64,000 nt of DNA. Origin: a virus. Positions 4,719 to 46,254 of the stretch are shown here, piece after piece. The stretch lies in the IMG/VR virus record IMGVR_UViG_3300008267_000011, positions 30,416 through 94,415 of that record; one strand, written 5' to 3'. Under the pieces are notes generated by a model. It worked only from the letters and a program-made list of their open reading frames with translations. It was not told the origin of the DNA and made no database searches. Position 1 is the stretch's first letter, and the number at the start of each line of letters is the position of its first letter. The position numbers were made by a program, and so were the translations under genes.

Positions 4719-7700
4719 ATGGCAATCGTACAACGTCCCTTTCTAAGGAGAAACTTTACACAATACCAATACGCTGTCGTTGATTCGAGTGAAACTTCGC
4801 CTGATTTCTTCGACATTTCCTTCTTTCCTACTAAGATTGGAGGTGGAAAGAGTGTTATCAAATTCAAAGGAAATCCTAACAACCTAGCGCTGCTAAAGGA
4901 GGTTGAGATTGAGGTAGTAGACGCAGCAGGCAATCCAGTAAAATCTGAGGTTGTTGAGTTAGTTGATAGATTCAACAACTACTTTGCTTCTATTAACGTA
5001 CACGACGACACTGCTGCTGGAACAGGATACGTTTACTTGGTAGGAGTTGCAAATAAGAATTCTACTGGCCAGCCGTTAGATAGATCGAGCTATAACGAGT
5101 TAGGGTATAACTTAATTTGGGGTAGGCCAATAGACATCCAACCATTTGAACGAAACGACTCAGAGCTAATCTTCAACGAAGCTCCAGCAATCCAAGTAGC
5201 ACAGATAATTGCACCAGCCCGTATTAGCTCTAATTTAGTGGCAGAAAGCTTATTCACAGCAACGACTTCATCAAACGCAACAATAACAACTTCAAAGTTC
5301 AGGGGGTTTGATAAGAAGCAATCGACAAGCGTACAAGTTGTCGATAAAAAGCTCAACAGCATAAAGATACAGCCTGATACGCAAGCAACCACTACAAACA
5401 TTGTAGACACTACAATAAGAACAGCAAACCCCGACGTTATAGGAGGCTACCAGGCAAACGACTTAGAGAGATTCAACACAGTAGCAACAACCGCTGTTTC
5501 CTTTTTTAGTAGTAGCCATGTCGGTGGCTACATGCAATTTTTTACACAAAGCTATACGCTACAACCCTCATTACCATCCACATCGCTACTAGCAACAACA
5601 AACCCATACAATAGCTTTGAGGTTAATGGGCTGACGCAATCGATAGACGATCAATTAGGATACTGGAAATCTACAGTAGTTCGTGTACTAAACGACAAGA
5701 CTGCCTATCTCGAAACTCCGGTGCAAGTTAACACTAGAGTTCCTGGAAGATTAGGCTATGTGCAAAACACCCACACGTACAGCAACGTATCCCAGTTCAC
5801 AGCTAGTTTGATATACGTAGACAATTCGAGTCTGTATATAACAAGTAGCCTAATGTCTCAAAGCTATATCCAAGTCACTTGCTACGATTTAAAACCAATT
5901 GCTGGAGAGGTTACTAGAATAAAGACCTATTTCAAAAGGTCATCTGCAACACAAGACTGGACGCTGTTGGGTGACCAGGAAGTCTATCCTCCTGAGTACC
6001 TAACAGACGCTGAAAAGCCTAATCAAGCATCGTACGCACGCACGCTAAGCGACTTCTTGCTAATAGGACACTTTACAGACAACGCAGTACTGCAAGACAA
6101 TTGGAGTTTTATCAATGAGACGCCAACTGGATTTGATAATGCAACGGGATCAATCGTAAACAATCCACTGCAGGATAGTGTACGTTTGCAAACAAGTGGA
6201 TCGACGAATAAGATACTAACGACAAAATACAACCAAAGCTACTTAGAGAGTCAAGTATACACTATAGCATTTGATTGTGTGCTGGATCCGTATACTGATC
6301 TAGAGGTTTACATGAATAGTGATGTGCTAAGCACAACGTTAATATCGCAGGACTTTTTGCCTAAAGCGTATACTAAGTCCAAAAACAAAGAACTGACGCG
6401 TTACCCGGATGGGTACTCGAGGTTTGGTAGATCGATTGGACGTATTGCAAATGCAACCGATCAACAAAAACAATATGGCCGTGTGCTGTTTGATTTCCTT
6501 ACAGATGGAGATGGATTAGGTAAGCCTCTACTTAGATGTGTACCAAATGGAGATGTGACTGGATCAAGCTATATCTCAAAAGTTAATCTAACACCAAGAA
6601 AACTAAACGGATACACACCAGAACTAATACAATTTGCACTACCAGCACCACCAGACTTTAGCTACAACCTTTCAGAGAGCATTGATTACAAATTCGAATA
6701 CTACGACTACTCAGGTAAGCAGTCTGAGTTTATTAGCTACATAAAGGACGAAAACCTAGAACTTGTTTCAGAGATCCAAACAAATAAGTGCCAAGCTGAG
6801 CGTAAAAGCTTCAGCTTTACATCAGACTACTGGATTTCGTCAAGTTACACAATTCCTAACTACATAGTAAGTGGTCGTACCTTGGAGCAAATTACTTCCG
6901 AGAGCTATAGTGCGGATACGAGACTATATCCTATGTTTGTTAACGGTGCTGTAGGCAGTATACTCGGATCGTACGCAGGTGCAGCTGCTAGTAACACACC
7001 AGTAGACGGATGGAATTGCGCAATACCCTACAATTATATGTTCTCTAACTCAGTAACATATTCAAGCTTCCGGTATATATCGGCATCAATATCGACTACA
7101 AACATGACGGTGTATCAAAACGCAGCTGGTCGTGTTACAAGTTCGTGGAGGTGGTTTGATACCTTCACCGACCTATACAACACAGGACCGGGGATTGGGA
7201 CAGCATTGCAAGCTTACGCGTACACTACAGCCTCTATTTCAGCAATCGACAACGCGCGATTCACAACTCACAGCTGTGTTGGAATCAGACGCGACGATGT
7301 ATCACAATCATATGCAGACTACACTAACGCAGCAAGTAATACAGCGCGAACTGTAGCGTTAAAGAAGAGAAGATTGGTTTGGCCAACTGGCGGATCTGTC
7401 ACATCAAGCTACTTTACTGAAAATGGAGGTATATACAACGTTAAGTTCAAACTAAAAAAAGACACAGACTACCTACCCGATACAGGATCGTACTTGATGG
7501 TCTACCTATTCAATGCATACACAGACTATACAACAAGTAGCATAGGAACAGCTGGTTGGTATCCACCATCAAGAAACATAGTAAAGATAGGACATGGATA
7601 CACATCAGGCAGTATCACAACGCCAACTATAACCTGGTACGACAGTGCAACGGGATACTACTACGATGAATACGACATAAACCTAATACAATACGGATCC

Positions 7701-7895
7701 TCAGCGCAATTGGTATTTGAGCCATCTGGTGATGGGGGAAAGTATTTTGGTACGTTGGTTGATGATATAGAATTTTGCAAAGTTGGCGTTACAACAGATC
7801 CGTTGTTCATCAAACCACAATCAGCAGCTAACCTGTCACGTTTTGGTAACATAGCATTTATCCCAAGTCCTGATACTCCAAGCGGTCAAAAATGA
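4719..7895 (+). CDS. Large virion structural protein (baseplate/tail-associated, putative)
   Basis: 1058 aa, Ser/Thr/Tyr-rich beta-type composition, about 20 [ST]-x-S motifs, preceded by the late motif TATTTATT (4695-4702). Confidence 0.55.
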   Translation: MAIVQRPFLRRNFTQYQYAVVDSSETSPDFFDISFFPTKIGGGKSVIKFKGNPNNLALLKEVEIEVVDAAGNPVKSEVVELVDRFNNYFASINVHDDTAAGTGYVYLVGVANKNSTGQPLDRSSYNELGYNLIWGRPIDIQPFERNDSELIFNEAPAIQVAQIIAPARISSNLVAESLFTATTSSNATITTSKFRGFDKKQSTSVQVVDKKLNSIKIQPDTQATTTNIVDTTIRTANPDVIGGYQANDLERFNTVATTAVSFFSSSHVGGYMQFFTQSYTLQPSLPSTSLLATTNPYNSFEVNGLTQSIDDQLGYWKSTVVRVLNDKTAYLETPVQVNTRVPGRLGYVQNTHTYSNVSQFTASLIYVDNSSLYITSSLMSQSYIQVTCYDLKPIAGEVTRIKTYFKRSSATQDWTLLGDQEVYPPEYLTDAEKPNQASYARTLSDFLLIGHFTDNAVLQDNWSFINETPTGFDNATGSIVNNPLQDSVRLQTSGSTNKILTTKYNQSYLESQVYTIAFDCVLDPYTDLEVYMNSDVLSTTLISQDFLPKAYTKSKNKELTRYPDGYSRFGRSIGRIANATDQQKQYGRVLFDFLTDGDGLGKPLLRCVPNGDVTGSSYISKVNLTPRKLNGYTPELIQFALPAPPDFSYNLSESIDYKFEYYDYSGKQSEFISYIKDENLELVSEIQTNKCQAERKSFSFTSDYWISSSYTIPNYIVSGRTLEQITSESYSADTRLYPMFVNGAVGSILGSYAGAAASNTPVDGWNCAIPYNYMFSNSVTYSSFRYISASISTTNMTVYQNAAGRVTSSWRWFDTFTDLYNTGPGIGTALQAYAYTTASISAIDNARFTTHSCVGIRRDDVSQSYADYTNAASNTARTVALKKRRLVWPTGGSVTSSYFTENGGIYNVKFKLKKDTDYLPDTGSYLMVYLFNAYTDYTTSSIGTAGWYPPSRNIVKIGHGYTSGSITTPTITWYDSATGYYYDEYDINLIQYGSSAQLVFEPSGDGGKYFGTLVDDIEFCKVGVTTDPLFIKPQSAANLSRFGNIAFIPSPDTPSGQK

Positions 7896-16485: not shown

Positions 16486-18060
16486 ATGTCAGAAAAGACC
16501 TTAAAAGAGATCATTAAGGAGGAGTACGTTAAGTGCGCTACTAATCCTGGGTACTTTATTAACAAGTACTGCATGATCCAACATCCAACGAGAGGAAAGA
16601 TACCTTTCCACTTATACCCATATCAGGTAACTACGTTGGATGACTTTATGAAGTTCGATAGAACAATCGTACTAAAGTCTCGTCAGCTTGGCATCAGTAC
16701 GCTTATTGCAGCTTATAGTCTATGGTTGATTCTTTTCCATAGCGATAAGAACGTGCTCGTAGTAGCGATTGATCAAAACACATCCAAGAACCTTGTAACA
16801 AAGGTTCGAGTTATGTTTGACAACTTACCAAGTTGGTTAAAGATGAAATGTGTAGAGAGTAATAAACTCTCAATGCGATTATCAAACGGTTCTCAAATTA
16901 AAGCAGTAGCAAGTACAGGAACATCAGGACGTTCAGAGGCACTATCGTTGGTTATTATTGACGAGGCAGCTTTCGTAGATGGAGCTGAAGAGTTGTGGGC
17001 ATCCTTGCAACAAACGCTATCTACTGGAGGACAGGGTATCCTATTATCGACTCCAAATGGTACTGGTAACTTTTTCCATAAGATTTGGATTAAGGCAGAG
17101 GCTGGAGAAAATAAGTTTAAGACTATTCGCCTACCTTGGCAAGTGCATCCAGAAAGAGACCAAGAGTGGAGAGATAGGCAAGACGCTGAGTTGGGTCTCA
17201 GATTAGCAGCACAAGAGTGCGATTGCGACTTTAGTAGTTCGGGTAATACACTAGTGGATCCTGGATTAATACAATGGTACTTGGCAACATATGCACAAGA
17301 ACCAGTAGAGAGGAGAGGTGCAGACCAAAGCTATTGGTTATGGGAACAACCATCAATGAGCAAGAGCTATATTGTAACAGCAGACGTTGCTCGAGGTGAT
17401 GGATCCGATTACTCAGCATTTCATGTAATTGAACCAGAAAGCTTAACTCAAGTAGCGGAGTTTAAAGGCCAATTAACAACAAAGGATTTTGGAAACATGC
17501 TAGTAAACGTAGCTACGGAGTGGAATGATGCATTGCTGGTAATAGAAAATAACAACGTAGGTTGGGCAACCATTCAACAAGTTTTAGATAGAGGCTACAA
17601 AAACCTATACTACACATACAAGAGCGACGTATTAGACTCAGACGTCTTCTTAGCAAAAGGATACGACTTAGTCAGCAAGATTGATATGGTTGCTGGATTT
17701 ACAATGTCACATAAGGTCAGACCACTTGCAATTAGTAAGTTTGATTTGCTAACCCGCGAAAAAAGCATTATATTCAGAAGTAAGCGATTTATGGATGAGT
17801 TAGCTACTTTCATTTGGAAAGAGGGCAAAGCTCAAGCAGCAAATGGATATAATGACGACTTAGTAATGTGTATGTGTCAGGGTATTTGGGTTAGAGATAC
17901 GGCTTTAAGATTAAGACAAGCTGGTATTGATATTACAAAGGCATCTCTTAACGCATCAAAGAGTTCAGCAACGCTTTACTCTGGAACAACGTTCAGGTCA
18001 AGTAACCCATGGAAGCAGAATGTCCAAGGTCGCGATGAAGATTTAACGTGGTTATTGTAA
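16486..18060 (+). CDS. terL: Terminase large subunit (gp17-like)
   Basis: YPYQ adenine motif, Walker A KSRQLGIST, Walker B IIDEAAF, coupling motif STPNG, nuclease motifs DVARG, ENN and NDDLV. Confidence 0.95.
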   Translation: MSEKTLKEIIKEEYVKCATNPGYFINKYCMIQHPTRGKIPFHLYPYQVTTLDDFMKFDRTIVLKSRQLGISTLIAAYSLWLILFHSDKNVLVVAIDQNTSKNLVTKVRVMFDNLPSWLKMKCVESNKLSMRLSNGSQIKAVASTGTSGRSEALSLVIIDEAAFVDGAEELWASLQQTLSTGGQGILLSTPNGTGNFFHKIWIKAEAGENKFKTIRLPWQVHPERDQEWRDRQDAELGLRLAAQECDCDFSSSGNTLVDPGLIQWYLATYAQEPVERRGADQSYWLWEQPSMSKSYIVTADVARGDGSDYSAFHVIEPESLTQVAEFKGQLTTKDFGNMLVNVATEWNDALLVIENNNVGWATIQQVLDRGYKNLYYTYKSDVLDSDVFLAKGYDLVSKIDMVAGFTMSHKVRPLAISKFDLLTREKSIIFRSKRFMDELATFIWKEGKAQAANGYNDDLVMCMCQGIWVRDTALRLRQAGIDITKASLNASKSSATLYSGTTFRSSNPWKQNVQGRDEDLTWLL

Positions 18061-18093
18061 GTACCACATATTTATCTAAAAGCGCTTTAAAAT

Positions 18094-19902
18094 ATGGCAG
18101 AGAACAATCCTTCTCTATTTCAGAGGTTACAGAGATTGTTTTCCACCGATGTTATCATTCGTAACGTTGGAGGGAATCAATTAAAAGTTATAGACGTTGA
18201 CAAAGTACAGTCAAGTGGTAACATTGATCAGAATCGACGTGTAGATCGCTTCTCCCGTATGTATCAAAACATGCCGGGATTTTCCTATTATCATGGACAG
18301 CTTCACTTAGCTACTCGTCTAGAGTTGTTTAAGGACTACGAAGCAATGGACACAGATAGTATTATTTCATCCGCTTTGGATTTGTACGCTGATGAGTGTA
18401 CAACAAAAGATGAGATGGGTAATGTTTTAATTATCCGATCTCCAAATGAAAAAGTACAGAAGGTATTGCATAACTTATTTTACGACATTCTAAATGTTGA
18501 ATTTAACTTATGGCCTTGGACTAGAAACCTACTAAAGTACGGAGACTTCTTCTTAAAACTAAACATAGCAGATAAGTACGGTATCATTGGTGTAGAGCCA
18601 ATGGCAGCTTATGAGATCATTCGTGAAGAAAACTTTGATCCAGAGAACCCATCGAGAGTTAGATTCAAGAGAGATTTTTCTGCACTAGCTGCAAGATCTC
18701 ACGTCGTTAACACAGAGACTGAGGAGTTTGAGAACTACGAAGTTGCTCACTTCCGTCTATTAACGGACACAAACTTCTTGCCATACGGACGTTCTCTAAT
18801 TGAACCTGCAAGAAAGGTTTGGAAACAGATCACTCTAATGGAAGATGCGATGTTGATTCACCGTATTATGCGTGCTCCAGACAAGCGTGTATTTAAAATC
18901 GATATCGGAAACATTCCACCAAACGAAGTAGATGCTTACATGGAAGGAATGATCAACCGTATCAAGAAAGTTCCTTTTGTCGATCCTGAGACAGGACAAT
19001 ACAACTTGAAGTACAACATGATGAACCTACTTGAGGACTTCTACTTCCCAGTACGTGGAGGAGAGAGTGCAACAGCTGTAGAGTCTTTGGCGGGTGTACA
19101 ATATGACAGTATCCAAGACATTGAATACCTTAAAGCTCGTTTGTTGGGATCATTGAAGATTCCAAAAGCTTTCCTAGGATTTGAAGAAGACATCTCAGGT
19201 AAGGCAACACTAGCATCACAAGACTTTCGTTTTGCTAGAACAGTTGAGCGTATTCAACGCATTATTGCTAGTGAGCTTTACAAGATAGCAATCATTCACC
19301 TTTACTCACAAGGATTTAACGACCAAGACCTAGTTGATTTTGAACTAGAACTGACTGTAGGATCATCCGTATACGAAAAAGAAAAGGTTGAGATTTGGTC
19401 AAGCAAAGTTACCCTAGCTGGTGATATGGTTGACAAAAAGCTATTTAGTCGTCAATGGGTATATGAAAACCTATTTGGTATGTCCGATGATGAGTTCCTA
19501 AAAGAACAAGAGAGAATGGTTCAAGATTACAAATTACAATTTCGTCTTGAGCAGATTAAAACAGAAGGTAATGATCCAGTTAAGACAGGAATGTCCTTTG
19601 GTACTCCACACGACCTTGCATCACTATATAAAGGTAATGGAGGAGTTCCAGGTGGGTACGATGAGAAGATGCCTGAAGGAGGCTGGCCAGGTGCTGGACG
19701 TCCAGAGGAATCAGGTACATATGGTACACATAAGCACCCATTAGGTTGGGATCCTTTGGGAAACAAAGGAAGAAGGGTTAATGAAGAGTTTACAATGTTT
19801 ATTAGAAATTTGAAAGGGAGTGCATTGAAGCAGACAATTGGTAACACATCTGAAATTTCAGAGCCAGATTTGCTCTCAGAGTCTAACATTTTAAACGATT
19901 AA
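18094..19902 (+). CDS. Portal protein (gp20-like)
   Basis: EDAMLIHRIMRAPDKRVFKIDIGNIPP, LEDFYFPVRG and LKIPKAFL match T4-type portals; directly follows terL. Confidence 0.93.
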   Translation: MAENNPSLFQRLQRLFSTDVIIRNVGGNQLKVIDVDKVQSSGNIDQNRRVDRFSRMYQNMPGFSYYHGQLHLATRLELFKDYEAMDTDSIISSALDLYADECTTKDEMGNVLIIRSPNEKVQKVLHNLFYDILNVEFNLWPWTRNLLKYGDFFLKLNIADKYGIIGVEPMAAYEIIREENFDPENPSRVRFKRDFSALAARSHVVNTETEEFENYEVAHFRLLTDTNFLPYGRSLIEPARKVWKQITLMEDAMLIHRIMRAPDKRVFKIDIGNIPPNEVDAYMEGMINRIKKVPFVDPETGQYNLKYNMMNLLEDFYFPVRGGESATAVESLAGVQYDSIQDIEYLKARLLGSLKIPKAFLGFEEDISGKATLASQDFRFARTVERIQRIIASELYKIAIIHLYSQGFNDQDLVDFELELTVGSSVYEKEKVEIWSSKVTLAGDMVDKKLFSRQWVYENLFGMSDDEFLKEQERMVQDYKLQFRLEQIKTEGNDPVKTGMSFGTPHDLASLYKGNGGVPGGYDEKMPEGGWPGAGRPEESGTYGTHKHPLGWDPLGNKGRRVNEEFTMFIRNLKGSALKQTIGNTSEISEPDLLSESNILND

Positions 19903-19928
19903 CCGAACTAATACATATTTATTACTAG

Positions 19929-20798
19929 ATGAAAAAATCGAGCCACAACAAAATTAAGAATACAATAATCTTGTTTGAGTTGCTTACAAGACAAGTAGCA
20001 TCCGATACGCTGAAGGGTGTCGAAAAGTCGCCTGCATTAACCATCATTAAGAACCACTTCAAGTCCAACTCAGCACTAGGAAAGGAATTGGTAATGTATC
20101 AGACGTTGGTAAACGAAAGCTACAAAAGTAAGGCTAAGGCAACTTCGTTGATGAGTACTGTAGTTGGGTTAAGAAAGAAGCTAACTAACGAATCTCTAAA
20201 AAAAGAGAAGTATGAATTGATCCGCGAGATCAAAAAGCATTACGATCTAGCAGCCTTCTTTAATACTAAGATTCAAAGCTACAAACTATTTGCATCAATA
20301 TACAGAGTATTTGAAGGTGTATCAGTAGCACGTGCAGCTGAGTTAGTCGATAGTCGTTTTACGATTATTGAGCACTTGACTCGAACAAAGCAAAAGACTG
20401 CAGAGGACGGATCAGCTATCGTACTTAATGAGTATAAGAAGCAGGATCAGGATGTTCGTTTACTAGCGTATCAGTTAATGGTTGATAAGTTTAATGCAAA
20501 GTATGCAGACCTTTCACCAAGACAAAGAAACATCCTAAAGGAATACATCAACAACGTATCAAACACTGATAACCTAAGAGAGTTTATGCTTAAGGAAGCA
20601 TACGCTTTGAAGTTGGAATTACAGAAGCAAGCAAAAGCTGTTACTGATAAGGTTGTTAAGATTAAACTTAACGAAGCTGTTGGTTTGATGAAGAAGTACG
20701 AAAAGACAAAGAGTGTTAAAGAGCACAACGTGCTATCACTTTTATTATACCATGAACTACTAAAAGAGCTAAGACATGCGCAAAAAGGATCTAAGTGA
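19929..20798 (+). CDS. Conserved hypothetical head-region protein
   Basis: Basic helical 289-aa ORF (HNKIKNTIILFELL) between portal and protease; late motif at 19916-19923. Confidence 0.7.
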   Translation: MKKSSHNKIKNTIILFELLTRQVASDTLKGVEKSPALTIIKNHFKSNSALGKELVMYQTLVNESYKSKAKATSLMSTVVGLRKKLTNESLKKEKYELIREIKKHYDLAAFFNTKIQSYKLFASIYRVFEGVSVARAAELVDSRFTIIEHLTRTKQKTAEDGSAIVLNEYKKQDQDVRLLAYQLMVDKFNAKYADLSPRQRNILKEYINNVSNTDNLREFMLKEAYALKLELQKQAKAVTDKVVKIKLNEAVGLMKKYEKTKSVKEHNVLSLLLYHELLKELRHAQKGSK

Positions 20799-21525
20799 AG
20801 TACAGGCGTTTGTTAAAGAGCTGAACAAAAAGCTTAAAGAAGGTAGTACTACTGATGGAGCTGGTGGTTATCCAACTCCTAAAGCTTTTGTAGGTGATGA
20901 GGATGCTGAAGGAAGTAAGAAAGGCTTAGATGCCTCTACAGCATTTACTGTCAAGCCACCAAAGAAAAAAAAGTTCTTCATCGGATATAAGGACCAGGGA
21001 GTTCACTTATCCGATATCAAAGAAGCAAACTACAGACAATTCAAAGAGGATGCTTCTATTCCAAACCACAAGAAAATCAATCAAGCCATTCTTGAGATCA
21101 ATCGCAAGATTTCCGAAATTAATAAGCTATTTGAACACTCCATAAAGCTAAAAACAGAAACTCAAGTAGGAGATGAAAAATTGTGGAAGAAAACTAACGA
21201 AGCTTTGCTTAAGATTCATAGAAGATTAAACGAAGCAACTAAGCGTGTAAGAAACGTTGCAAATCTCAAAGAGATAGAAGTCAATACAGCTAAGGACAAG
21301 TTTCTAAAGATTTTTATGAGAGCTGGTATGACTATCGATGCACAAGACGTTGAGATAGTAAAGCAAGGCAACACCCACATTATCGATGTGATGATAAATG
21401 GGGAACCTTCTGGATTTGATCTAGAAAACGACATCCTAACTTATCAAGGCTTTGATAAAGAAGTTGAGCTGGGAAATATTAACAGAGAACAAGAGGTTGC
21501 CGACAAGCTTAAAACAATATTCTGA
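20776..21525 (+). CDS. Hypothetical head-region (prohead core-like) protein
   Basis: 249 aa with LKE and IKE sites separating modules; lies in the head cluster. Confidence 0.65.
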   Translation: MRKKDLSEVQAFVKELNKKLKEGSTTDGAGGYPTPKAFVGDEDAEGSKKGLDASTAFTVKPPKKKKFFIGYKDQGVHLSDIKEANYRQFKEDASIPNHKKINQAILEINRKISEINKLFEHSIKLKTETQVGDEKLWKKTNEALLKIHRRLNEATKRVRNVANLKEIEVNTAKDKFLKIFMRAGMTIDAQDVEIVKQGNTHIIDVMINGEPSGFDLENDILTYQGFDKEVELGNINREQEVADKLKTIF

Positions 21526-21536
21526 TATTTATTAAC

Positions 21537-22136
21537 ATGAAAACATTACTTATAGATTCAATCGGATGCCTCTCTGTAACCCCAGAGCAGATCAACGAGT
21601 CTATGCAACAAAACAACGGAAAGGTTATTCTATCCGGAGTTATGCAAAGAGCAGATGCCACTAACCAAAATGGCAGACAATACCCTGAGGATATCCTACG
21701 TCGTGAAGCTGACAAGTATAAGCAAGTATTTGTAACAGAGCGTAGAGCATTAGGAGAATTAGATCATCCAGACTCATCCGTAGTGAACCTACAAAACGTA
21801 TCGCATAACGTAGTTGATCTATGGTGGAATGGTGGTGATTTAATGGGTAAGATAGAAATCCTAAGCACCCCATCAGGAAACATTGCAAAAGAGTTGCTAA
21901 AGTCCGGTATCCGTTTAGGAATCAGCTCTCGTGGCATGGGTAGTGTTAAAAATATTGGAGAAGGAAAGGTAGAAGTTCAAGACGACTTTGAAATTGTTTG
22001 TTGGGACTTGGTATCTAATCCATCTACACACGGTGCATTTATGTCACCACTTAACGAATCGGTATCTCACGACAACAAGCAAAACAAGTACACAAAGGTA
22101 CACTCATTGATAAACGATATAATCTCAGTAATGTAA
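21537..22136 (+). CDS. Prohead core protease (gp21-like)
   Basis: NQNGRQY, ALGELDHP (catalytic His), GISSRGMGS (catalytic Ser) and DLVSNPS. Confidence 0.95.
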   Translation: MKTLLIDSIGCLSVTPEQINESMQQNNGKVILSGVMQRADATNQNGRQYPEDILRREADKYKQVFVTERRALGELDHPDSSVVNLQNVSHNVVDLWWNGGDLMGKIEILSTPSGNIAKELLKSGIRLGISSRGMGSVKNIGEGKVEVQDDFEIVCWDLVSNPSTHGAFMSPLNESVSHDNKQNKYTKVHSLINDIISVM

Positions 22137-22137
22137 T

Positions 22138-22503
22138 ATGAAACTCAAGAAATTATTAGAAGGACTAGAAGGAGATTCCCCTAAAAAGACCACAAACGAA
22201 AAGGCTGCGTTCATTCAGGAAGTGAAAAAGTTTAACGAATACGGATCGGTAATCTATCGTACTGAGGATCTACGTCGTGTTGCTGAGGAGATCAATGAGC
22301 TTGTGACTAAAGCAGAAGCAGTAACCCTACAAGAAACTCAAGACTGGTTTGACGAGATTACGGTAAAGCGTAATCTAAAGACTTTGCGTGAAGGCAATAA
22401 GCAGTTTGGACAAACTGTGAAGGAAATCTCTAAACTACAACAACGTTTAGAATCTTTGTACGAAGAAATGGGTCACAATCTATCAAGATACTATGAGCTT
22501 TAA
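22138..22503 (+). CDS. Hypothetical coiled-coil head protein
   Basis: Starts MKLKKLLE; helical; lies in the head cluster. Confidence 0.7.
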   Translation: MKLKKLLEGLEGDSPKKTTNEKAAFIQEVKKFNEYGSVIYRTEDLRRVAEEINELVTKAEAVTLQETQDWFDEITVKRNLKTLREGNKQFGQTVKEISKLQQRLESLYEEMGHNLSRYYEL

Positions 22504-22894
22504 AATACTCAAACTAAAAGACTTAATACCACTTCGTGAAGCTGAAGGTGACGAAGAGGAAGCTGGTGGTGGAAATCCATTTGCTGCTGCTGGAGGAGAC
22601 GAGGGTGGTGCTGAAGGTGGTGACGATGCTGCTGCTGCAGATGATGCAGGAGGTGATGAAGCCGGTGCTGAAGGTGGAGAAGAAGGAGGCGAAGAGGAAA
22701 CGGGAGATGCTAAGAAGCAGCCTGATTTAAAGTACCCTATTAAGTTCAATATTGGTAGAGTAAAAAAATACAACAATGCTGATTTTATTAGCAACCAAGG
22801 AGAATTAAAGAGCATCAACAGCAAGGGAATGACTGTAACAGTTCAACCAGACAATGTAGATGTGTTTGTGAATTTTAACGATATTATCGACTAA
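22493..22894 (+). CDS. Hypothetical head protein with Gly/Glu/Asp low-complexity tract
   Basis: N-terminus MSFKILKLKDLIPLRE, then an acidic Gly-rich linker and a small C-terminal domain. Confidence 0.65.
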   Translation: MSFKILKLKDLIPLREAEGDEEEAGGGNPFAAAGGDEGGAEGGDDAAAADDAGGDEAGAEGGEEGGEEETGDAKKQPDLKYPIKFNIGRVKKYNNADFISNQGELKSINSKGMTVTVQPDNVDVFVNFNDIID

Positions 22895-23550
22895 TGAAAC
22901 TGCAACCAATACTAGAAGGAATCCTTAGAGAGGAAGAAGATAAGAAGCAAATTGCAGCCATGGACCAAGCTATGCAATCAGCAGCTGCTGAACTTGCTAA
23001 GTTGTATAAGGATAATGAGGCTGAGATTAAACAAGATGTTGAGCAATCAGAAGAAGAGCTCAATGAGTCTTTAGGAGCAGTAGCTATTATTGGATTTATC
23101 CTAGCTCTACCTAAAGTAGTGGAGTTGCTAGTTAAGGGAATAGGTAAAATCGTAGCTGTTTGGAAAAAGCTAGTTAAACCAGGACAAGCTAAGGGTAACG
23201 AAGAGGAGTTTGCTCATAACATTATTGAGTTTACGCACAAATGGCACAAGACCTACATTAAAGGATTGAAATGGATTCTACAGATGTCAGGAGTATTTAA
23301 GAAAGCAAACATTACTGGAGATGCTGCACAGATGAAAGCAGCAGAAGCAATATACTATACAATTATTGCAGGACTAGCAATTTACTCCGGAGTGGGTGCA
23401 GTAGGCGCATTTAAAGCAGCAGCTCAAGGAGCAGCACATGGCGGTAGCTTTTCGCTAGGAGCATTTGAAGCAGCTATGGCTTCTGTTAAGACGGGAGAAG
23501 TTGGAGAGTTTCTTGGGAAACTTGGACTAAAGGCTGCAAAAGCTGCATAA
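22894..23550 (+). CDS. Hypothetical protein with hydrophobic helices, putative head-internal/ejection protein
   Basis: Starts MKLQPILEGILREE; an LNE site immediately precedes a hydrophobic segment. Confidence 0.65.
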   Translation: MKLQPILEGILREEEDKKQIAAMDQAMQSAAAELAKLYKDNEAEIKQDVEQSEEELNESLGAVAIIGFILALPKVVELLVKGIGKIVAVWKKLVKPGQAKGNEEEFAHNIIEFTHKWHKTYIKGLKWILQMSGVFKKANITGDAAQMKAAEAIYYTIIAGLAIYSGVGAVGAFKAAAQGAAHGGSFSLGAFEAAMASVKTGEVGEFLGKLGLKAAKAA

Positions 23551-34700: not shown

Positions 34701-36633
34701 AACAGCTTTTGTAACAAACATAGGAGACGTTACGACCTATCTAGGACCATTAAACGATTTCAGTGCTTCGGTATTAGCATTTACCTCATCCATTCAAACT
34801 CAAGTAAATAATTTAACTTCTGCAACTTCAAGCTACGTGCTAAATAGTGCTACTAGTTCAATGTCGGTATTAAGTAGCTCATATGCCTTAACTGCGTCGT
34901 ATGCTCTAAACGTTCCTACCGTAGACACATCAGCATTAGTAGGCACTGCATCATTCAACTCATTCACTAGCTCAATACAAAGTCAAGTAGATAATTTAAC
35001 ATCCGCTACTTCTAGCTATGTGTTGAATAGTGCTACTGGATCTATGTTAGCTCCATACGTATTGAGTAGTGCAACGGCGTCAATGCTTAGCCCCTACGTA
35101 CTAACTTCTAGTACAAGTTCAATGAGCGTACTAAGTAGTTCGTACTCGTTAACGTCATCCTACACAAGCGCTACTTTGCAGACTATAACAGATAACGATA
35201 CCACATCATCACATGATATAAGCGTCAATAGCATAGGCGTGTACGACGGAGCAAACTCAGGATACACGAAAATCGAAGGCACTGACGGAGGGGTAGTTAT
35301 CAGCACTGCAACTGCTCAACCGCTTCTTACTATACAGCAGGATAATATAACACTTTACGATGCGTCTGGTAACTATGCTTCTTTGCAAAATGCACTATTA
35401 ACTGGAAATCGTAGCTACAATCTACCTGATCAATCGGGAACTATTGCATTAGTGTCAGGCTCAATATACGGAACAGCTAGTTGGGCCATCAACGCTCAGA
35501 CAGCCAGCAACGTGACTCAGCTTAATCAAGATGTAACCATTGTTGGTAACTTGAATGTGATTGGAACAGCCTCATACAACTACATAACAGCATCTCAACT
35601 AGATGTAGGGACTAATTTTATATCAGTCAACATTGGTGAGCCTGCTGAGAGGTTTGGAGGGTTGAAGGTTTATGATTCAGGATCATTATCGCACCAAGCA
35701 ACTGCAAGTCTTGCCTGGGACTCTTTAAACAACCATTGGATTTACCAAAATGCATCAGGATCGATGTATTCCGGTGGTATGCTTCTTTCAGGTCCTCGCA
35801 ACACCGGTTCTTTAGGAGATGAGCCTAGCTTAACAAAGTGGTTTATTCCAAGATCAGATGGAGGAGATCATTTAGACAACTCGCGAATATACAGCAGCGC
35901 TTCTATCCATATAGCCACAGGAAGCTTTACAGCTACCTCATTTACTGGATCAATTCGCGGTCACGTTACTACAAGTAGCATAGACACCACGCAATACGTT
36001 CTAAAAAATAGCAGCGGAGTTAATGCAATCAACTGGGAAACTGGAACTATAGGACACCCCGACACAAGATCAATCGATTGGATAAATCGATATCTAATTG
36101 ACGGCAGCGACATCGCAGTTGTCGATTGGTTTAGTAAGCAGCTGTACGATGTGTGGGGTAGTATTGCTTTGGATTGGTCAGTAGACAGAGCTTTCAATGC
36201 CTCTTACAAGTACCATCAGCAGATTACCGATCTTGACAGACAAGAAGAGCTATCAGCAGCGCCGTTGCAATACTCTGGACACAATATCGCAGGAGGAGGC
36301 CCAATCACGACCGGCCAGCTATGTTATTTGGAGACTGATGGTAAATGGTACGACGTTGATCAAACGACAGACACCTCTACAAAAATGCTAGGAATTGCAG
36401 TAGCTGGTAAAGAGGTCGTACTAGAGGGAGACGTTGTTTTGGATAATATACAAGGAGCTAACTATGGATTGCCTGTCTATATTAGAGAGGGTACTAGTGC
36501 TGGAGACCTATCAACAACCATTCCAACATCGGGGTACGTAAGAGTGATAGGACATTGCTACTACGACAACGCAGGTACACCTGGTCAATGGATACTGAAA
36601 CTTAGACCTTCAAACGATTGGTATAGAATATGA
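31738..36633 (+). CDS. Long fibre protein with YadA-head-like N(V/T)AIG beta-roll repeats
   Basis: 1631 aa; many N-x-A-I-G repeats (about 32520-33700), Ser/Thr-rich repeats, DW-x-x-R-x-L repeats, and a distinct C-terminal domain (MLGIA...YVRVIGHC). Confidence 0.75.
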   Translation: MAGPLDFTGQNIEDSYQRVLQTDGLIITDGTGSFVNLQFTGSFSGSLEGTATTASYVQQAESASYVTINQGDGITVSGMTISANLRSVNGNLPDGSGNVSVSLAAVLTGTSASLASYATGGLAEGTVWIVSGDAAPEKNGTSYVYDSGSVGVWYQIAPLDQTAADARYARINTTTVQNLTSSFATTASYAANGGVTRILAGSGISLSPTNGLGAVTITSTGGGGGGTFPFSGSAVITGSLVVSSSTPTINGLTISPIKNTTTNISIGLGALLTVSSGVRNIGIGSGSLQGGNQSDNVAIGISAMANSGNTGYNGVAIGSYALQNGTGASNTVVGYSAMRYATSWASCLAVGFEAGLYLTGSNNTLLGVGAGRTFVGDRSVLIGGAAGERGAGSSTGNRGNVAIGALALAGDNVLPPRSITGQYNFAMGYRAMGQGHNGAGNTAIGTEALLELATGSYNVALGYRASQALVNGTSNFYMGYDAGTTNRYGNGTIAIGNSAARALFYDPAFLGVNTRTIAIGASALRASSTLNVSVDNIAIGESSMTLHVSGSGNISIGVESLNAHTSGSGNVAIGHQAMKNSPVSSIIENNVAIGLTAGQYLSGSNNTILGANGTNNPSGASIKILTNVVAVGANAGRSIATLSRGSVVIGPGAGPSSNTVITDRLFIASGSGNPLIGGDFANKTVTISGSIYISGSIIPNADATLTSSFELGSPTAAWNRIWVRSSSIHFVDDLGNELAKISANPAGAIEMPNIYTSGTFTAQTFVTQSTTTIIEIYHATGSNIFGSSSLDTHQFTGSVYISGGLEQVAGTSALRNVSISNELSTAGDVYLTNLQDSNQSYLVSINPGTGQLYYTASSAFTPINPDLSNYALLNGGNTFAGGQLVYDESSVVSIQSNQTTRQLYDNSGLASVDWGTRRLIDDAGFEAFDFQARQLFDQTQVPVLELVDSNAVFPQGVRLTGVAIDDTNIASSVVILDPATGQLYTTSSTAFVTNIGDVTTYLGPLNDFSASVLAFTSSIQTQVNNLTSATSSYVLNSATSSMSVLSSSYALTASYALNVPTVDTSALVGTASFNSFTSSIQSQVDNLTSATSSYVLNSATGSMLAPYVLSSATASMLSPYVLTSSTSSMSVLSSSYSLTSSYTSATLQTITDNDTTSSHDISVNSIGVYDGANSGYTKIEGTDGGVVISTATAQPLLTIQQDNITLYDASGNYASLQNALLTGNRSYNLPDQSGTIALVSGSIYGTASWAINAQTASNVTQLNQDVTIVGNLNVIGTASYNYITASQLDVGTNFISVNIGEPAERFGGLKVYDSGSLSHQATASLAWDSLNNHWIYQNASGSMYSGGMLLSGPRNTGSLGDEPSLTKWFIPRSDGGDHLDNSRIYSSASIHIATGSFTATSFTGSIRGHVTTSSIDTTQYVLKNSSGVNAINWETGTIGHPDTRSIDWINRYLIDGSDIAVVDWFSKQLYDVWGSIALDWSVDRAFNASYKYHQQITDLDRQEELSAAPLQYSGHNIAGGGPITTGQLCYLETDGKWYDVDQTTDTSTKMLGIAVAGKEVVLEGDVVLDNIQGANYGLPVYIREGTSAGDLSTTIPTSGYVRVIGHCYYDNAGTPGQWILKLRPSNDWYRI
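34780..35163 (+). repeat. Internal coding duplication in the fibre gene
   Basis: FTSSIQTQVNNLTSATSSYVLNSATSSMSVLSSSY (from 34780) recurs as FTSSIQSQVDNLTSATSSYVLNSATGSM... (from 34963), followed by shorter YVLxSxTxSM units. Confidence 0.8.
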
Positions 36634-37082
36634 GCAACATAACGCAAATAAATGGATTAGAGATAACAGCTGCAACTGCTAGCTACATTGATCCAACGTT
36701 CATCTCAGCATCAGCTGCTGCAAGTGGCTTTGGATCCGGAGGAGGATCAAGTACTGCAGCAACAGCGTCGTTAGCATTAACAGTATCGCAATCACAAGCT
36801 GGTAGTGGTAGCAGTGGCAATGGAACACATCGAGTAGCGCTACTAGACCCAGGATCAGGTGGATCTCAAGTAGACTCGCCAATATACTACGACCATAATG
36901 GAATAACATATAACACACTCACAAACACCTTAACGGTTGGTGGTCCTATAACAGCTAGCTCTGGTTTATATGGAACAGCTAGTTGGGCTGTAACAGCATC
37001 ATACGCTCTATCAAGTCCAGGAGGTGGAGGTGGAGGATTGACATTTCAACAAACGCAAATGATAGCATTTTTAGGTTCATAA
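36630..37082 (+). CDS. Small Ser/Gly-rich fibre-associated protein
   Basis: Shares the GTASWA and TASY motifs with the long fibre; 17 nt identical at 35470-35486 and 36972-36988. Confidence 0.6.
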   Translation: MSNITQINGLEITAATASYIDPTFISASAAASGFGSGGGSSTAATASLALTVSQSQAGSGSSGNGTHRVALLDPGSGGSQVDSPIYYDHNGITYNTLTNTLTVGGPITASSGLYGTASWAVTASYALSSPGGGGGGLTFQQTQMIAFLGS

Positions 37083-37920: not shown

Positions 37921-37927
37921 CACAATC

Positions 37928-38071: not shown

Positions 38072-38072
38072 T

Positions 38073-38930: not shown

Positions 38931-38933
38931 GTT

Positions 38934-43860: not shown

Positions 43861-46254
43861 ATGGCCGAAAAAATAGTTAGCCCAGGAGTCTTTACCACAG
43901 AGAAAGACTTATCATTTTTACCAGCGGGAATTGCTGCCATTGGAGCAGCTATCGTTGGTCCTACAACAAAAGGTCCTGCCTTTGTACCAACAGTAGTAAC
44001 AAGCTTCGATGACTTTACTGCTAAGTTTGGCGGATTGAGCGAAGAGACTTATGTACCATACGCAGTTAAGAGTTACTTGAAGAACGCAAGTGCTGTTACT
44101 GTAGTTCGTATTCTACAAGAAGGCGGATATAATGTAAACGGAGCATTTGCTCTTATCCACTCTGCATCAGGAACTGGATTTAATGTAGTTGGTGTTGCAA
44201 TCCCAAGCCAAAAAGCAAATAGCGGTGCTGGTATCGATGGAGTTAACTTGACTGGATCAACCATCACATCATCAGCTGGTGTAGCTGGAAGCGGTAGTGC
44301 TAGCGGATCTATGAAGATGACTTTTGTAGGAGGTGGTGTAACTAGCTTCACAGTAAGTGCATCGGCAGTTCCAACAGCAGCAGATAGCTTAGACAAGGTA
44401 CTTGGAACCAGCATTAAGTCAAATAAAGAGGCTTACACTTACATTTGGTTCTCTGATTTCTTAACATCAAACTACAACGTTGCAGGAGCAACAATCTCAG
44501 CATCCGTAGCAACAAGCTTAAACTTGTCAGGATCAACTGATGGAGCTTATCGAGGTGCAACAACTCCATGGATTACTTCACAGAATCTTTCTGGTCAAAA
44601 CCCAGCAAACCTGTTCCGCTTTGTGACATTGGCACATGGAACTGACACAAATACTTCTTACAAAGTTAGCATTGTTAACCAAACATTACCAACTTCAACA
44701 GCGTACGGAACCTTCACAGTATTGGTTCGTGAGTATAATGACACAGACCAACGTCCAGTTGTTCTTGAGTCTTATAGCAATGTAAACTTAGATCCAAACT
44801 CACCTGACTTTATTGCTCGTCGAATTGGAGATAAGTACTATCAAGTTAACAGTGCTGGAGATGCAATAACAATTACCGGTGACTACAATAACGTAAGTAA
44901 GTATGTTCGTGTGGATGTTGATAGTGATGTTAAGGCTGGTGGAACACCAATCACATACTACCCAAAAGGATTTGCAGCAGTTAAGCAGCCATTCCAACAC
45001 GCTACCTACACTTTACCATCTGCAAGCTATATCACTCAAAACGTTGTAATCAACGGAGAGTATAGCAAGAGAGCTTATTATGGTTGGAACTTTGCTAGCA
45101 CAGATAACAACAACTACGCTAAACCACTCCCAAGTAGTGCAGGTGTAGGAGCAAACGTAGTGTTTAACCTAGACAACTGCTTTATACACCCAAGTGCATC
45201 CGGCACATTTACTGCAGGAGCGTCTATCTCAGGATCAACTTTAACAGGATTGGATATTTCTAATGTATTGAAGTTTAGCGTACCATTCCAAGATGGATTC
45301 GATGGTGATGATGCTGGTAAGAAGAAGTTAATGGGAAGCTCTATCGTATCAACCAACACCCAAGGTTTGGATTGTAGCACAGCTAGCGCAAAGGGATCTA
45401 GAGCTTATTCAAAAGCATTGACAATTCTATCAAACCAAGACGAGTATGATATGAACCTACTAGTAACACCTGGTGTAACTATAGCAAACCACTCAAGCGT
45501 TGTTAATAAAGCAATTGATACAGTTGAATCTAGAGGAGATGCTTTCTACATTGCAGACCCAGTAATCCAAGGAGGATCAGCAGCTAGCGCAATCGCAGCA
45601 GTAGCAAGCTCAGGAATTGATAGCTCATATGTTGGAACTTACTGGCCATGGGTTAAGATCATCGATACCGACAAGAACAAGCCAGTATGGGTACCACCAA
45701 GTGTTGTACTACCAAATATCTACGCTTACAATGATAACGTAGCGTTTGAATGGTTCGCACCTGCAGGTCTAAATCGTGGAGGAATCACTGAAGCTGTAGA
45801 CGTAGAGTTGAAACTAAGCTTTGCTAATCGTGACAGCTTGTATGAGAATAAGATCAACCCAATTGCAACATTCCCTGGACAAGGAATCTGTGTATGGGGT
45901 CAAAAGACTCTACAAGTTAAATCTTCAGCATTGGATCGTGTAAACGTACGTCGTCTATTGATTGCTTTGAAGAAGTTTATCGCAAGCTCTACTCGCTACT
46001 TGGTATTCGAAAACAATACTACTGAAACTCGTCAACGTTTCTTGAACATTGTTAACCCATACTTAGAGAGAGTAAAAGGACGTCAAGGATTATATGCCTT
46101 CCGTGTAGTGATGGACGAGACTAACAACACACCAGATGTAATCGACAGAAACATCATGTACGGTCAAATCTACCTACAACCAGCTAAGACTGCAGAATTT
46201 ATTGTGTTGGATTTCAACATCTTACCTACTGGAGCTTCTTTTGAAAACGCATAA
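43861..46254 (+). CDS. Tail sheath protein (gp18-like)
   Basis: VSPGVFTTE, GPTTKGP, WFAPAGLNRG, LYENKINPI, WGQKT, DRVNVRRL and DETNNTPDVID. Confidence 0.97.
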   Translation: MAEKIVSPGVFTTEKDLSFLPAGIAAIGAAIVGPTTKGPAFVPTVVTSFDDFTAKFGGLSEETYVPYAVKSYLKNASAVTVVRILQEGGYNVNGAFALIHSASGTGFNVVGVAIPSQKANSGAGIDGVNLTGSTITSSAGVAGSGSASGSMKMTFVGGGVTSFTVSASAVPTAADSLDKVLGTSIKSNKEAYTYIWFSDFLTSNYNVAGATISASVATSLNLSGSTDGAYRGATTPWITSQNLSGQNPANLFRFVTLAHGTDTNTSYKVSIVNQTLPTSTAYGTFTVLVREYNDTDQRPVVLESYSNVNLDPNSPDFIARRIGDKYYQVNSAGDAITITGDYNNVSKYVRVDVDSDVKAGGTPITYYPKGFAAVKQPFQHATYTLPSASYITQNVVINGEYSKRAYYGWNFASTDNNNYAKPLPSSAGVGANVVFNLDNCFIHPSASGTFTAGASISGSTLTGLDISNVLKFSVPFQDGFDGDDAGKKKLMGSSIVSTNTQGLDCSTASAKGSRAYSKALTILSNQDEYDMNLLVTPGVTIANHSSVVNKAIDTVESRGDAFYIADPVIQGGSAASAIAAVASSGIDSSYVGTYWPWVKIIDTDKNKPVWVPPSVVLPNIYAYNDNVAFEWFAPAGLNRGGITEAVDVELKLSFANRDSLYENKINPIATFPGQGICVWGQKTLQVKSSALDRVNVRRLLIALKKFIASSTRYLVFENNTTETRQRFLNIVNPYLERVKGRQGLYAFRVVMDETNNTPDVIDRNIMYGQIYLQPAKTAEFIVLDFNILPTGASFENA

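Follow-up and report, generated by a model that had tools for sequence, protein, structure and literature searches.

Short peptides that end in serine recur in the virion proteins encoded by one stretch of viral DNA (64,000 nucleotides, here the window), and the question raised by this locus is what they are for. The source is an uncultured T4-like phage whose contig is about 54% complete. An earlier note had described the peptides as [S/T]-x-S and read them as a phage-specific glycosylation sequon. Every peptide quoted there is present, and the recurrence is real and stronger in a sharper form, [ST]-[G>A]-S with hydrophobic flanks, which we call the word. The coordinates of the features concerned are given in Table 1.

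Table 1. Genes discussed in the text, with their positions in the window.
Feature	Position	Strand	Assignment or remark
ORF 4719, putative virion protein, 1058 aa, 20% Ser+Thr	4719..7895	+	
Terminase, portal, head protease and neighbours	16486..24715	+	Negative class, almost without the word; PHROG identities
Major capsid protein, T4 gp23 family	24743..26359	+	Pfam PF07068 5.9e-75; phrog_138
Neck/head-tail adaptor (Ad2-like) protein	27137..28321	+	phrog_211 3.6e-12
ORF 29989, short fibre, 274 aa	29989..30813	+	Hexad shaft N-terminal, C1q/TNF-like jelly-roll head C-terminal
ORF 31738, fibre/tail-spike-like protein, 1631 aa	31738..36633	+	phrog_4636 tail spike; phrog_6002 virion structural protein
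ORF 36630, 150 aa, 57% G/S/T/A	36630..37082	+	4-base overlap with end of ORF 31738
Three paralogues among the fibre genes, 277, 285 and 286 aa	37087..39794	+	Internal negative control
ORF 39832, fibre-like protein, 1210 aa	39832..43464	+	Cryptic duplicated modules
Tail sheath, 797 aa	43861..46254	+	phrog_23 1.6e-73; PF04984; PF17482

Enrichment of a specific tripeptide

Counts were compared with shuffles inside blocks of 10, 15 or 30 residues, which keep the local composition. In the eight named proteins pooled, the broad [ST]xS pattern occurs 224 times versus 162 expected (z 6.6), made up of TxS (112 versus 74) and SxS (112 versus 88). The Thr-ended forms show no excess (SxT 68 versus 74, TxT 67 versus 63), and the i+3 spacing is depleted (123 versus 161). 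An unbiased scan of 8000 tripeptides in eight outer proteins placed SGS, TGS and TAS at ranks 1 to 3 (z 9.6, 9.5 and 5.7). In the fibre-like ORFs, [ST][GA]S is found 88 times versus 25.4 expected (z 12.9), so that the enrichment survives the composition-preserving shuffles that had been proposed as a check. The note had also seen Ser favoured over Thr at the third position, and this was borne out: [ST][GA]T is not enriched in the same ORFs (28 versus 21.8), and the count of phi[ST][GA]S-phi is 18 versus 2.9 expected, compared with 0 versus 2.5 for phi[ST][GA]T-phi. NGS and TNS are absent (0 versus 5). The middle residue is Gly at 3.0 times and Ala at 2.0 times expectation, with Asp, Asn, Lys, Arg and Glu almost excluded. 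Ile, Val or Leu at position −1 (1.5–2.1 times expectation) and Tyr or Ile at +3 form a beta-like context, which counts for a structural word. The Ser at position 3 is encoded by all six Ser codons, indicating selection at the protein level. Recent domain duplication was ruled out as the cause of the excess, as was ORF 29989 as its sole source (96 versus 30 without that ORF).

Restriction to outer proteins

The word is concentrated, with 29% of residues holding 92% of all [ST][GA]S copies. Capsid, sheath and neck together carry 20 copies versus 6.5 expected. The 25 other morphogenesis ORFs, a class that extends to position 55792 and takes in ORFs for the tube, hub and baseplate, are depleted (3 versus 11.6, z −2.5; for [ST]GS, 0 versus 5.0), and 25 non-structural ORFs show no excess (6 versus 5.3). 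The scarcity noted before in portal, tube and enzymes therefore holds, and extends to the protease and the hub. The three paralogues among the fibre genes (24–26% Ser+Thr, mutual identity 39–44%) contain 0, 0 and 2 copies versus 0.8–1.7 expected. Depletion in other morphogenesis proteins, among them the beta-rich ones of tube and baseplate and these Ser/Thr-rich paralogues, looks like sequon avoidance and argues against a structural word. No sequence similarity was detected among the outer proteins that carry the word, in line with the view that it was selected in non-homologous proteins.

The capsid sites (TGS166, TAS181, SGS213, TAS241, TGS247 and SSS278; window 25238–25585) all fall within residues 166–280, the insertion region, and amount to 5 copies versus 1.6 expected (p 0.01), or 6 if SSS is counted. 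Their positions are poorly conserved relative to immuto, Mel-JY01 and RM378, which bear copies of their own; T4 gp23 has none. The neck protein has SSS10, SAS17, TGS26, SES162 and SGS277, with 3 [ST][GA]S copies, most of them close to its N-terminus, versus 0.7 expected (p about 0.03). In the sheath, 12 copies versus 4.1 expected (p 0.001) lie in the exposed middle domains (residues 101–509), including SAS101, TGS131, SGSASGS144-150, SAS166, SAS213, SGS223, SAS387 and SGS457. The excess in capsid and sheath is thus significant for the narrow word but not for broad [ST]xS (p 0.075 in the capsid alone, p 0.4 in the sheath alone). All 120 of 120 sheath homologues lie above expectation (mean 9.6 versus 3.4), and several sites are kept among them as a degenerate class, [ST][GAS]S, in which Ser and Thr exchange, the middle residue swaps among Gly, Ala and Ser, and position 3 stays Ser; this is a poor fit to a strict positive-phi Gly turn. 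In the sheath model, 6 of the 12 position-3 Ser residues fall on a strand boundary, versus 10 of 55 other Ser residues. The predicted contexts are mixed (ends and interiors of strands, loops and helix N-caps), which would speak against a structural word.

The fibre-like carriers

The highest density of the word is found in ORF 29989, whose shaft repeats six residues, x-phi-(T/S)-G-(S/N)-x, with spacings of 6, 12, 18, 24 and 30 residues, a strict period of 6. In an AF2 model, residues 16–60 form four-residue strands joined by two-residue G-[S/N] loops, at a pLDDT of 55–70 for the shaft and about 90 for the head. As modelled, the word appears to be the turn of the hexad repeat, with a clear structural role. 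Gly followed by Ser, Asn or Thr is a classic type II' hairpin turn. Position 3 of the word alternates among S, N, T and D, and the G-[S/N] loops resemble those of short-period beta-solenoid shafts (bactofilin- and DUF342-like); some homologues bear the source labels bactofilin or DUF342. The hexad family has 2703 members with 11–40 hexads apiece and the profile −2 I/V/L/F 68%; −1 T33 S26 I10; G; +1 S50 N23 T7 D5. Asn, which cannot be O-glycosylated, thus takes the place of Ser in 23% of hexads, and this counts for a structural word. Turn propensities alone do not predict how strongly Ser is preferred, that Gly and Ala swap in the sheath, or that the word is confined to certain phage groups and depleted in other virion proteins.

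Foldseek matched the head of ORF 29989 to BclA (E 6.5e-8), ExsF, 4-1BBL and phage RBP heads. The likeness to BclA and ExsF of the Bacillus exosporium and to the phage proteins, at a sequence identity of 12–19%, is that of a C1q/TNF jelly-roll head on a short-period repeat shaft. The BclA shaft is O-glycosylated; it folds as a collagen-like GXX triple helix, in contrast to the six-residue beta repeat of ORF 29989.

ORF 31738 has YadA-head-like NxAIGxxA repeats (about residues 280–680) and the recurrent words [ST]AS[YW]A and phi-[ST]GS-phi; it holds 39 [ST][GA]S copies ([ST]xS 77 versus 55.6, z 3.8), and a search for a PDB relative found none. ORF 36630, without a match in a family search, has 7 copies, GTASWAVTASYA among them. 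ORF 39832, for which neither a Pfam nor a PDB relative was found, has 22 copies ([ST]xS 46 versus 36) and contains modules present twice each (NGQITGS.., GGTNQYISGS..RISS and DG.NL.VSGS..LTPS). ORF 4719, cited earlier as a carrier, does have an [ST]xS excess (37 versus 24.5, z 3.2), but this consists mostly of S/T clumps (TSS, TTS) and, unlike the other carriers, it has just 8 [ST][GA]S copies. Searches gave it no known family, PDB relative or usable Atlas lead.

Relatives and their glycosyltransferases

Immuto and Mel-JY01 prefer Thr at position 3 ([ST]GT 42 versus 19 and 27 versus 9), and RM378, although enriched in [ST]xS, has lost the Gly preference; such drift counts for a structural word. 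T4 fibres (83 versus 84), S-SM2 and HTVC008M have no excess, which goes against a purely structural rule, expected to hold in other beta-rich fibres. The Ser-specific excess reappears in a clade of phages of about 30 kb that is unrelated to the T4-like clade (the G014 clade), in 26 of 26 loci (1293 versus 387) and, within G014, in seven different structural ORFs. Both clades share the hexad/C1q fibre family. IMG/VR loci with the same shaft are positive, and those with the same head only are mostly not.

A search of the contig for glycosyltransferases found none, which counts for a structural word. A syntenic triad of two GT1-like enzymes and one GT2 is present in every sufficiently complete large relative (immuto, G001, G002, G003, G033 and G037); the best-matching solved structure is that of chlorovirus B736L (3oy2, E 7.6e-8). 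Across a set of 50,697 phage records, only immuto, Mel-JY01, LR756508 and RM378 encode a homologue of the first triad enzyme; these are exactly the nearest capsid clade, with hosts in three phyla, so the substrate is probably supplied by the phage. Three complete members of the T4-like clade lack a ThyA/dCMP-hydroxymethylase family gene; this argues against hydroxymethyl-pyrimidine DNA, which is probably not the conserved target. A core triad in this clade argues against a structural word, and it makes modifying enzymes outside the window, as suggested before, plausible, although the contig encodes none. Of 14 records from the G014 clade, none has a GT1 and one has a GT2. Four members are at least 90% complete, and three of them, G014, G038 and G039 (97–100% complete), carry neither; G014 also lacks a GT9, and a Pfam scan showed no sugar enzyme in it. 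The strength of the word is therefore independent of phage glycosyltransferase genes. The same Ser-specific excess in small phages without sugar-adding enzymes makes a structural word more likely than a glycosylation signal.

Discussion

We favour, with a probability of roughly 0.55, the reading that this is an unmodified structural and surface word, one that marks strand exits and tight turns in exposed all-beta modules; it is more likely not in itself a modification signal. Its form would be [Ser/Thr]-[Gly>Ala>Ser]-Ser, in most cases flanked on both sides by a hydrophobic residue. The statistics, the periodicity, the positions in the two models, the conservation in homologues and the independence of phage glycosyltransferases are observations; the physical role of each residue may be as follows. 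The first hydroxyl residue would close a beta-strand and point outwards, the small middle residue would permit chain reversal or close packing, and the Ser at position 3 would open a loop, its bias perhaps arising from the loop preference of Ser versus the strand preference of Thr. In fibre shafts the word would supply the fixed corner of the hexad, a repeat expanded 11–40 times, and in capsid, sheath and neck it would be placed in added surface domains.

It is doubtful that the word serves instead as a structural sequon at which enzymes encoded by the phage O-glycosylate the outer virion proteins in the cytoplasm, with downstream sugar genes that differ among phages and would vary the glycan. 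The core triad of the clade, its relationship to B736L, the evidence against a DNA target, the confinement of the word to outer proteins and the BclA-like architecture of ORF 29989 favour it, but co-occurrence of triad and word inside one clade amounts to a single evolutionary event, and the word reaches the same strength in the G014 clade, most of whose members lack GT1 and GT2. A precedent is that of the autotransporter heptosyltransferases Aah and TibC, which modify Ser and not Thr at strand-loop-strand sites in a patterned solenoid array of AIDA-I and TibA, in the cytoplasm (PMC3835316, PMC4358343). The phage word has the same Ser bias and, in the models, appears in the same strand-turn-strand setting. 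However, a GT9 (BAHT-type) gene is missing from the contig and present in just 1 of 5 complete relatives, and the substrates would be phage virion proteins rather than autotransporters. According to PMC12619734, mycobacteriophages decorate capsid and tail proteins by means of phage-encoded glycosyltransferases (Freeman et al. 2023), with the glycans on the C-terminal ends of the capsid and tail-tube subunits; no other established example of self-glycosylation by a phage was found. The tripeptide in the window is dispersed and internal, the tube lacks it and the contig has no glycosyltransferase.

Mosaic inheritance alone, in which a fibre-module signature spread by horizontal exchange and repeat expansion without selection on the word, is already weakened and improbable. 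It would suit the variable repeat number of the hexad shaft family, the positive shaft-sharing loci and the duplicated modules of ORF 39832, but the vertically inherited capsid, sheath and neck proteins show the excess too, the sheath sites are kept as a class despite swaps in all 120 homologues, the outer proteins are mutually dissimilar and seven different G014 structural ORFs are enriched.

Still less probable is a target of a host enzyme (a glycosyltransferase, kinase or other Ser-modifying enzyme) common to the hosts of both groups. This would reconcile the small phages without glycosyltransferases with modification, and the shared fibre family suggests that hosts or habitats may be shared; the hosts of the T4-like clade, however, span three phyla, and we know of no candidate enzyme. 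Bacteroidota, the likely host phylum of some relatives, use a three-residue Ser/Thr sequon on many surface proteins, D-(S/T)-(A/I/L/V/M/T). Their general O-glycosylation acts after export, outside the cytoplasm. The note was right to hold the two motifs distinct: D[ST][AILVMT] is not enriched (19 versus 22.8), and Asp is almost excluded beside the word.

A composition or low-complexity artefact, or chance, deserves hardly any credence: the carriers have a high content of S, T, G and A, broad [ST]xS falls short of significance in capsid and sheath and ORF 4719 is clumped, but for [ST][GA]S this is refuted by the block shuffles at all three sizes, by order specificity, by the top ranks in the tripeptide scan and by replication in hundreds of homologues and loci.

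For the structural word, restriction to some phage groups may be a lineage dialect. Its likely causes would be repeat expansion and surface-module exchange in one gene pool, together with selection for uncharged, hydroxyl-rich surfaces.

The Ser-terminated word and the outer virion proteins

The window is the final 64 kb of a 94,415-base IMG/VR contig (CheckV completeness about 54%), and its genes lie on the + strand throughout. It carries a T4-like myovirus virion module with a gp23 capsid, gp18 sheath, gp19 tube, gp20 portal and gp21 protease (assigned through PF07068, PF04984/PF17482, phrog_4542, phrog_213 and phrog_207), in which a terminase and a baseplate hub were also recognised. The closest capsids are those of Flavobacterium phage immuto (54.5% identity), Microcystis phage Mel-JY01, the uncultured phage LR756508 and Rhodothermus phage RM378. 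In one 1055-aa ORF near the start of the window, an Mre11-like metallophosphoesterase domain is linked with an SMC/Rad50-like N-terminal segment plus a coiled coil, as if the functions of gp47 and gp46 had been fused.

Coordinates of the features discussed, in the window unless another record is named
Feature	Coordinates	Strand	Basis or content
Mre11-like/SMC-like ORF	1523-4690	+	1055 aa
Major capsid, gp23 family	24743-26359	+	PF07068 at 5.9e-75
Neck protein, Ad2-like	27137-28321	+	
ORF 29989	29989-30813	+	hexad repeats
ORF 31738	31738-36633	+	PHROG tail spike
Three tandem paralogues (37087, 38073, 38934)	37087-39794	+	277-286 aa each
ORF 39832	39832-43464	+	
Tail sheath, gp18-type	43861-46254	+	PF04984/PF17482
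Tail tube	46283-46771	+	
Triad, relative G002	L180:890-6495		
Triad, NC_055915	49172-53029		
Acb1-like ORF, G002	L180:3662-4210		E 1.9e-7

The earlier note had proposed [ST]xS as a glycosylation sequon of exposed virion regions. Motif counts in 58 translated ORFs were set against shuffles confined to blocks of 10, 15 or 30 residues, so that local composition was preserved. The proposed excess survived this comparison in the eight outer proteins (fibre-like ORFs 4719, 29989, 31738, 36630 and 39832, and the capsid, neck and sheath), which together hold 224 copies against 162 expected (z 6.6), but the motif proved narrower than described. TxS and SxS are in excess, SxT and TxT are at expectation, and i+3 spacing is depleted (123 vs 161). 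Gly and Ala occur in the middle position at 3.0 and 2.0 times expectation, Asp, Asn, Lys, Arg and Glu are nearly excluded from it, and the flanking residues are hydrophobic or Tyr; the real word is therefore phi-[ST]-[G>A]-S-phi, where phi is a hydrophobic residue.

Scored as [ST][GA]S, the word occurs 88 times in the five fibre-like ORFs against 25.4 expected (z 12.9) and 20 times in the capsid, sheath and neck against 6.5 (z 5.5). There is no excess elsewhere: 3 vs 11.6 in the 25 other morphogenesis-module ORFs (z -2.5), where [ST]GS is absent against 5.0 expected, and 6 vs 5.3 in the 25 non-structural or unknown ORFs (z 0.3). In total, 108 of 117 copies (92%) fall within 29% of the residues. 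The broad [ST]xS, with global or block shuffles, had indicated that the capsid and sheath were not enriched; the narrow word overturned this, with significant excesses in the sheath (12 vs 4.1, p 0.001), capsid (5 vs 1.6, p 0.01) and neck (3 vs 0.7, p 0.03) taken singly. The suspected preference for Ser over Thr at position 3 was also upheld, as [ST][GA]T is not enriched (28 vs 21.8) and the hydrophobic-flanked form has Thr 0 times against 2.5 expected and Ser 18 times against 2.9. When all 8000 tripeptides were scanned in the outer proteins, the top three were SGS (37 vs 8.9), TGS (32 vs 7.7) and TAS (22 vs 6.9); nothing comparable was found by the same scan in the remaining 50 proteins.

Composition and chance are thereby excluded as causes. 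A DNA-level motif was rejected because position 3 draws on all six Ser codons and the nonamers vary. Inflation by internal duplication was rejected by all-against-all BLAST, which found no similarity of the outer proteins to each other or within themselves, and by leaving out ORF 29989, after which 96 copies remain against 30 expected. Separately, NGS and TNS are absent from the eight outer proteins (5 expected each), as are TGI and GVS (4-5 expected each); for Asn-Gly-Ser, the reason may be that exposed surfaces avoid sites prone to deamidation.

Among the individual ORFs, 4719, a putative virion protein, is exceptional in that its excess consists mostly of Ser/Thr clumps. Searches of Pfam, PHROGs and the Atlas with 4719 returned nothing usable, and PDB sequence searches with 31738, 39832 and 4719 gave no match. 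Paralogues 37087, 38073 and 38934, at 24-26% Ser+Thr, are essentially without the word, and so are ORFs 28814, 50939 and 53229. The three paralogues stand in tandem amid the fibre genes, are 39-44% identical and lean to [ST]xT. ORF 39832 has a cryptic internal duplication overlooked by BLAST, in which 'GGTNQYISGS..RISSSNFHLDT.GNVTMAGT' and 'LRSNGQITGS..L.DGG' each appear twice (about residues 180-560 and 880-975), and its 'IGGW.I' motifs recur. ORF 31738 has YadA-head-like 'N.AIG..A' repeats at about residues 280-680, a near-duplicate segment 'F.SSIQ.QV.NLTSATSSYVLNSAT' at about residues 1015-1100, and recurrent '[ST]AS[YW]A' words that it shares with ORF 36630.

Structural setting of the word

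ORF 29989 has a strict six-residue periodicity, which none of the other large ORFs shows. Its family comprises 2703 homologues with 11-40 hexads each, a few of them labelled bactofilin or DUF342, and protein length follows hexad number (r 0.75). The hexad profile is x-phi-[T33 S26 I10]-G-[S50 N23 T7 D5]-x. In an AlphaFold2 model (mean pLDDT 78.8; 55-70 in the shaft and near 90 in the head), four-residue strands alternate with two-residue loops, each a G-[S/N] dipeptide; the last strand residue is the first Ser/Thr of the word, and its final Ser follows Gly as the second loop residue. The combination of periodicity, turn dipeptide and inward hydrophobic alternation that defines a short-period beta-repeat shaft was found in 29989 only. 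Foldseek matched the C-terminal 150 residues (125-274) to C1q/TNF-like jelly rolls, with probability 1.00 to BclA, BxpB, ExsFA and 4-1BBL (target-normalised TM 0.6-0.73), and the head also resembles phage receptor-binding heads. On this evidence 29989 is a short fibre whose shaft is a beta-repeat and whose tip is C1q-like. A head of this type without the shaft is also present in small phages of Limnohabitans and Acinetobacter.

In a model of the sheath, whose middle domains have pLDDT 70-95, 6 of the 12 position-3 serines fall on a strand boundary, compared with 10 of 55 other serines. Of the remaining six sites, one is inside a strand, one is a helix N-cap and the others are in loops. All 120 sheath homologues are above expectation (mean 9.6 vs 3.4), with an [ST][GA]T ratio of 0.79. 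Sites 148, 166, 213, 223, 445 and 457 are conserved as a class, with Ser and Thr exchanging at position 1, Gly, Ala and Ser at position 2, and Ser kept at position 3. Capsid sites shift between relatives, each of which has its own copies within the insertion region.

Distribution among phages

The idea that the word is generic to phage fibres was rejected: the T4 fibres, gp18 and gp23 are flat for [ST]xS (83 vs 84), and no excess is seen in sheath, capsid, neck or fibre proteins of S-SM2 and HTVC008M, both marine T4-like phages. The excess is common to close IMG/VR relatives and to the contig's own upstream fibre ORFs (z up to 19). Immuto and Mel-JY01 prefer [ST]GT (42 vs 19 and 27 vs 9), and in RM378 [ST]xS is in excess but Gly is not preferred. 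IMG/VR loci with the hexad shaft mostly have a strong excess over their structural ORFs (z 8-19, with two weaker cases near 4); those having only the 29989-type head mostly have none.

The word also occurs in a clade of approximately 30-kb phages unrelated to the T4-like clade. The genome of its representative G014 (30.6 kb, complete, with terminal repeats) has seven enriched structural ORFs, and its portal and non-structural half are not enriched. All 26 loci of this clade, recruited via the portal, were positive ([ST][GA]S 1293 vs 387; [ST][GA]T 348 vs 455). The only gene common to G014 and this contig is the fibre.

Glycosyltransferases and the word

The earlier note placed the modifying enzymes outside the window. 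The 94-kb contig, which is about 54% complete, yielded no GT2, GT1, GT8, GT1_4 or GT9 glycosyltransferase in six frames, and none of its ORFs of at least 200 aa is a glycosyltransferase. Immuto and five IMG/VR relatives (G001, G002, G003, G033 and G037) carry three glycosyltransferase genes in synteny (the triad): two GT1-like ORFs of about 430-515 aa and, after them, a GT2 of about 210 aa. The sugar genes downstream vary, with an amino-sugar pathway in immuto (whose sugar cluster spans 11 kb) and RmlD, an ATP-grasp enzyme and extra GT2s in G002. The G002 cluster also includes an Acb1-like/2H-phosphoesterase ORF of the anti-CBASS family and a NUMOD homing-endonuclease ORF. The best solved relative of the first triad enzyme is chlorovirus B736L. 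Homologues of this enzyme were found in 7 of 50,697 phage records, namely immuto (four records), Mel-JY01, LR756508 and RM378. This set coincides exactly with the nearest capsid clade, whose hosts belong to three phyla; the triad is a core gene set of that clade and is missing from every other phage record searched.

Covariation of word and enzyme did not hold up. Among word-positive complete genomes, immuto, G001, G002 and G003 have a glycosyltransferase; G014, G038 and G039 are word-positive without one, and G040 has one GT2. G014 has no GT1, GT2 or GT9, and Pfam recognised only a terminase, a protease and a weak methyltransferase among its larger non-structural ORFs. In the 14 records searched from its clade, GT1 was found in none and GT2 in one, and three of the four members at least 90% complete have neither. 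A glycosyltransferase is present in 4 of 9 word-negative complete small phages. The word is therefore independent of a recognisable phage glycosyltransferase. Most word-positive IMG/VR contigs are 18-48% fragments and uninformative here. T4, S-SM2 and HTVC008M have neither triad nor word; triad and word co-occur within the T4-like phages, but as a single clade.

Interpretation of the word

The best-supported account, to which we give a probability of about 0.55, reads the word as an element of strand exits and tight turns in exposed beta modules. Repeat shafts would have multiplied it and selection on surface domains would have preserved it, in a gene pool common to at least two unrelated groups of phages. 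Lineage restriction, the strictness of Ser at position 3 and the depletion in the rest of the virion proteins are not explained in this way.

Those three features would be accounted for, within the T4-like clade, if its core triad O-glycosylated the outer virion proteins (fibres, sheath, capsid insertion and neck) at a Ser-specific phi-[S/T]-[G/A]-S-phi sequon in hosts from at least three phyla, which we regard as unlikely. Virion-buried surfaces would then avoid the word, and the acceptor would be defined by structure, at strand exits. The autotransporter heptosyltransferases Aah/TibC provide the mechanistic precedent: they modify Ser, not Thr, where it opens the loop of a beta-solenoid strand-loop-strand. 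The word has such a bias for Ser over Thr. Its Ser in 29989 is second in the loop, 6 of 12 sheath sites are at strand boundaries and the others in mixed contexts, and PF01075 (GT9 heptosyltransferase) is absent from this contig and present in one of five complete relatives (G003). The sequon of general O-glycosylation in Bacteroidota, D-(S/T)-(A/I/L/V/M/T), is not enriched here (outer proteins 19 vs 22.8; rest 42 vs 40.8). ThyA/dCMP-hydroxymethylase family genes were not found in three complete triad-bearing genomes; this gene content makes glycosylation of hydroxymethyl-pyrimidine DNA an unlikely role for the conserved triad, a result that bears on that DNA only and not on other modifications, and virion proteins stay a candidate target of enzymes restricted to the capsid clade. 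Glycosylation by the triad must, however, treat the clade without glycosyltransferases as a separate case, in which the small phages would rely on a different enzyme or would have inherited the word for a structural reason. That module inheritance alone explains the word is improbable, and modification by a host-encoded enzyme very improbable.

Since the word separates outer from inner virion proteins, it offers a simple sequence marker for exposed virion modules, useful in uncultured aquatic phages, whose fibre genes mostly belong to no family. The relative immuto is in culture, so the question is directly testable. If the word is structural only, it defines a widespread fibre-shaft repeat together with a lineage-specific surface 'dialect' that still needs explanation. 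Should it be a sequon, it would be the first code for phage virion glycosylation that can be read from sequence; it would also give the clade-core triad a role and bear on host recognition, stability and evasion of immunity or defence.
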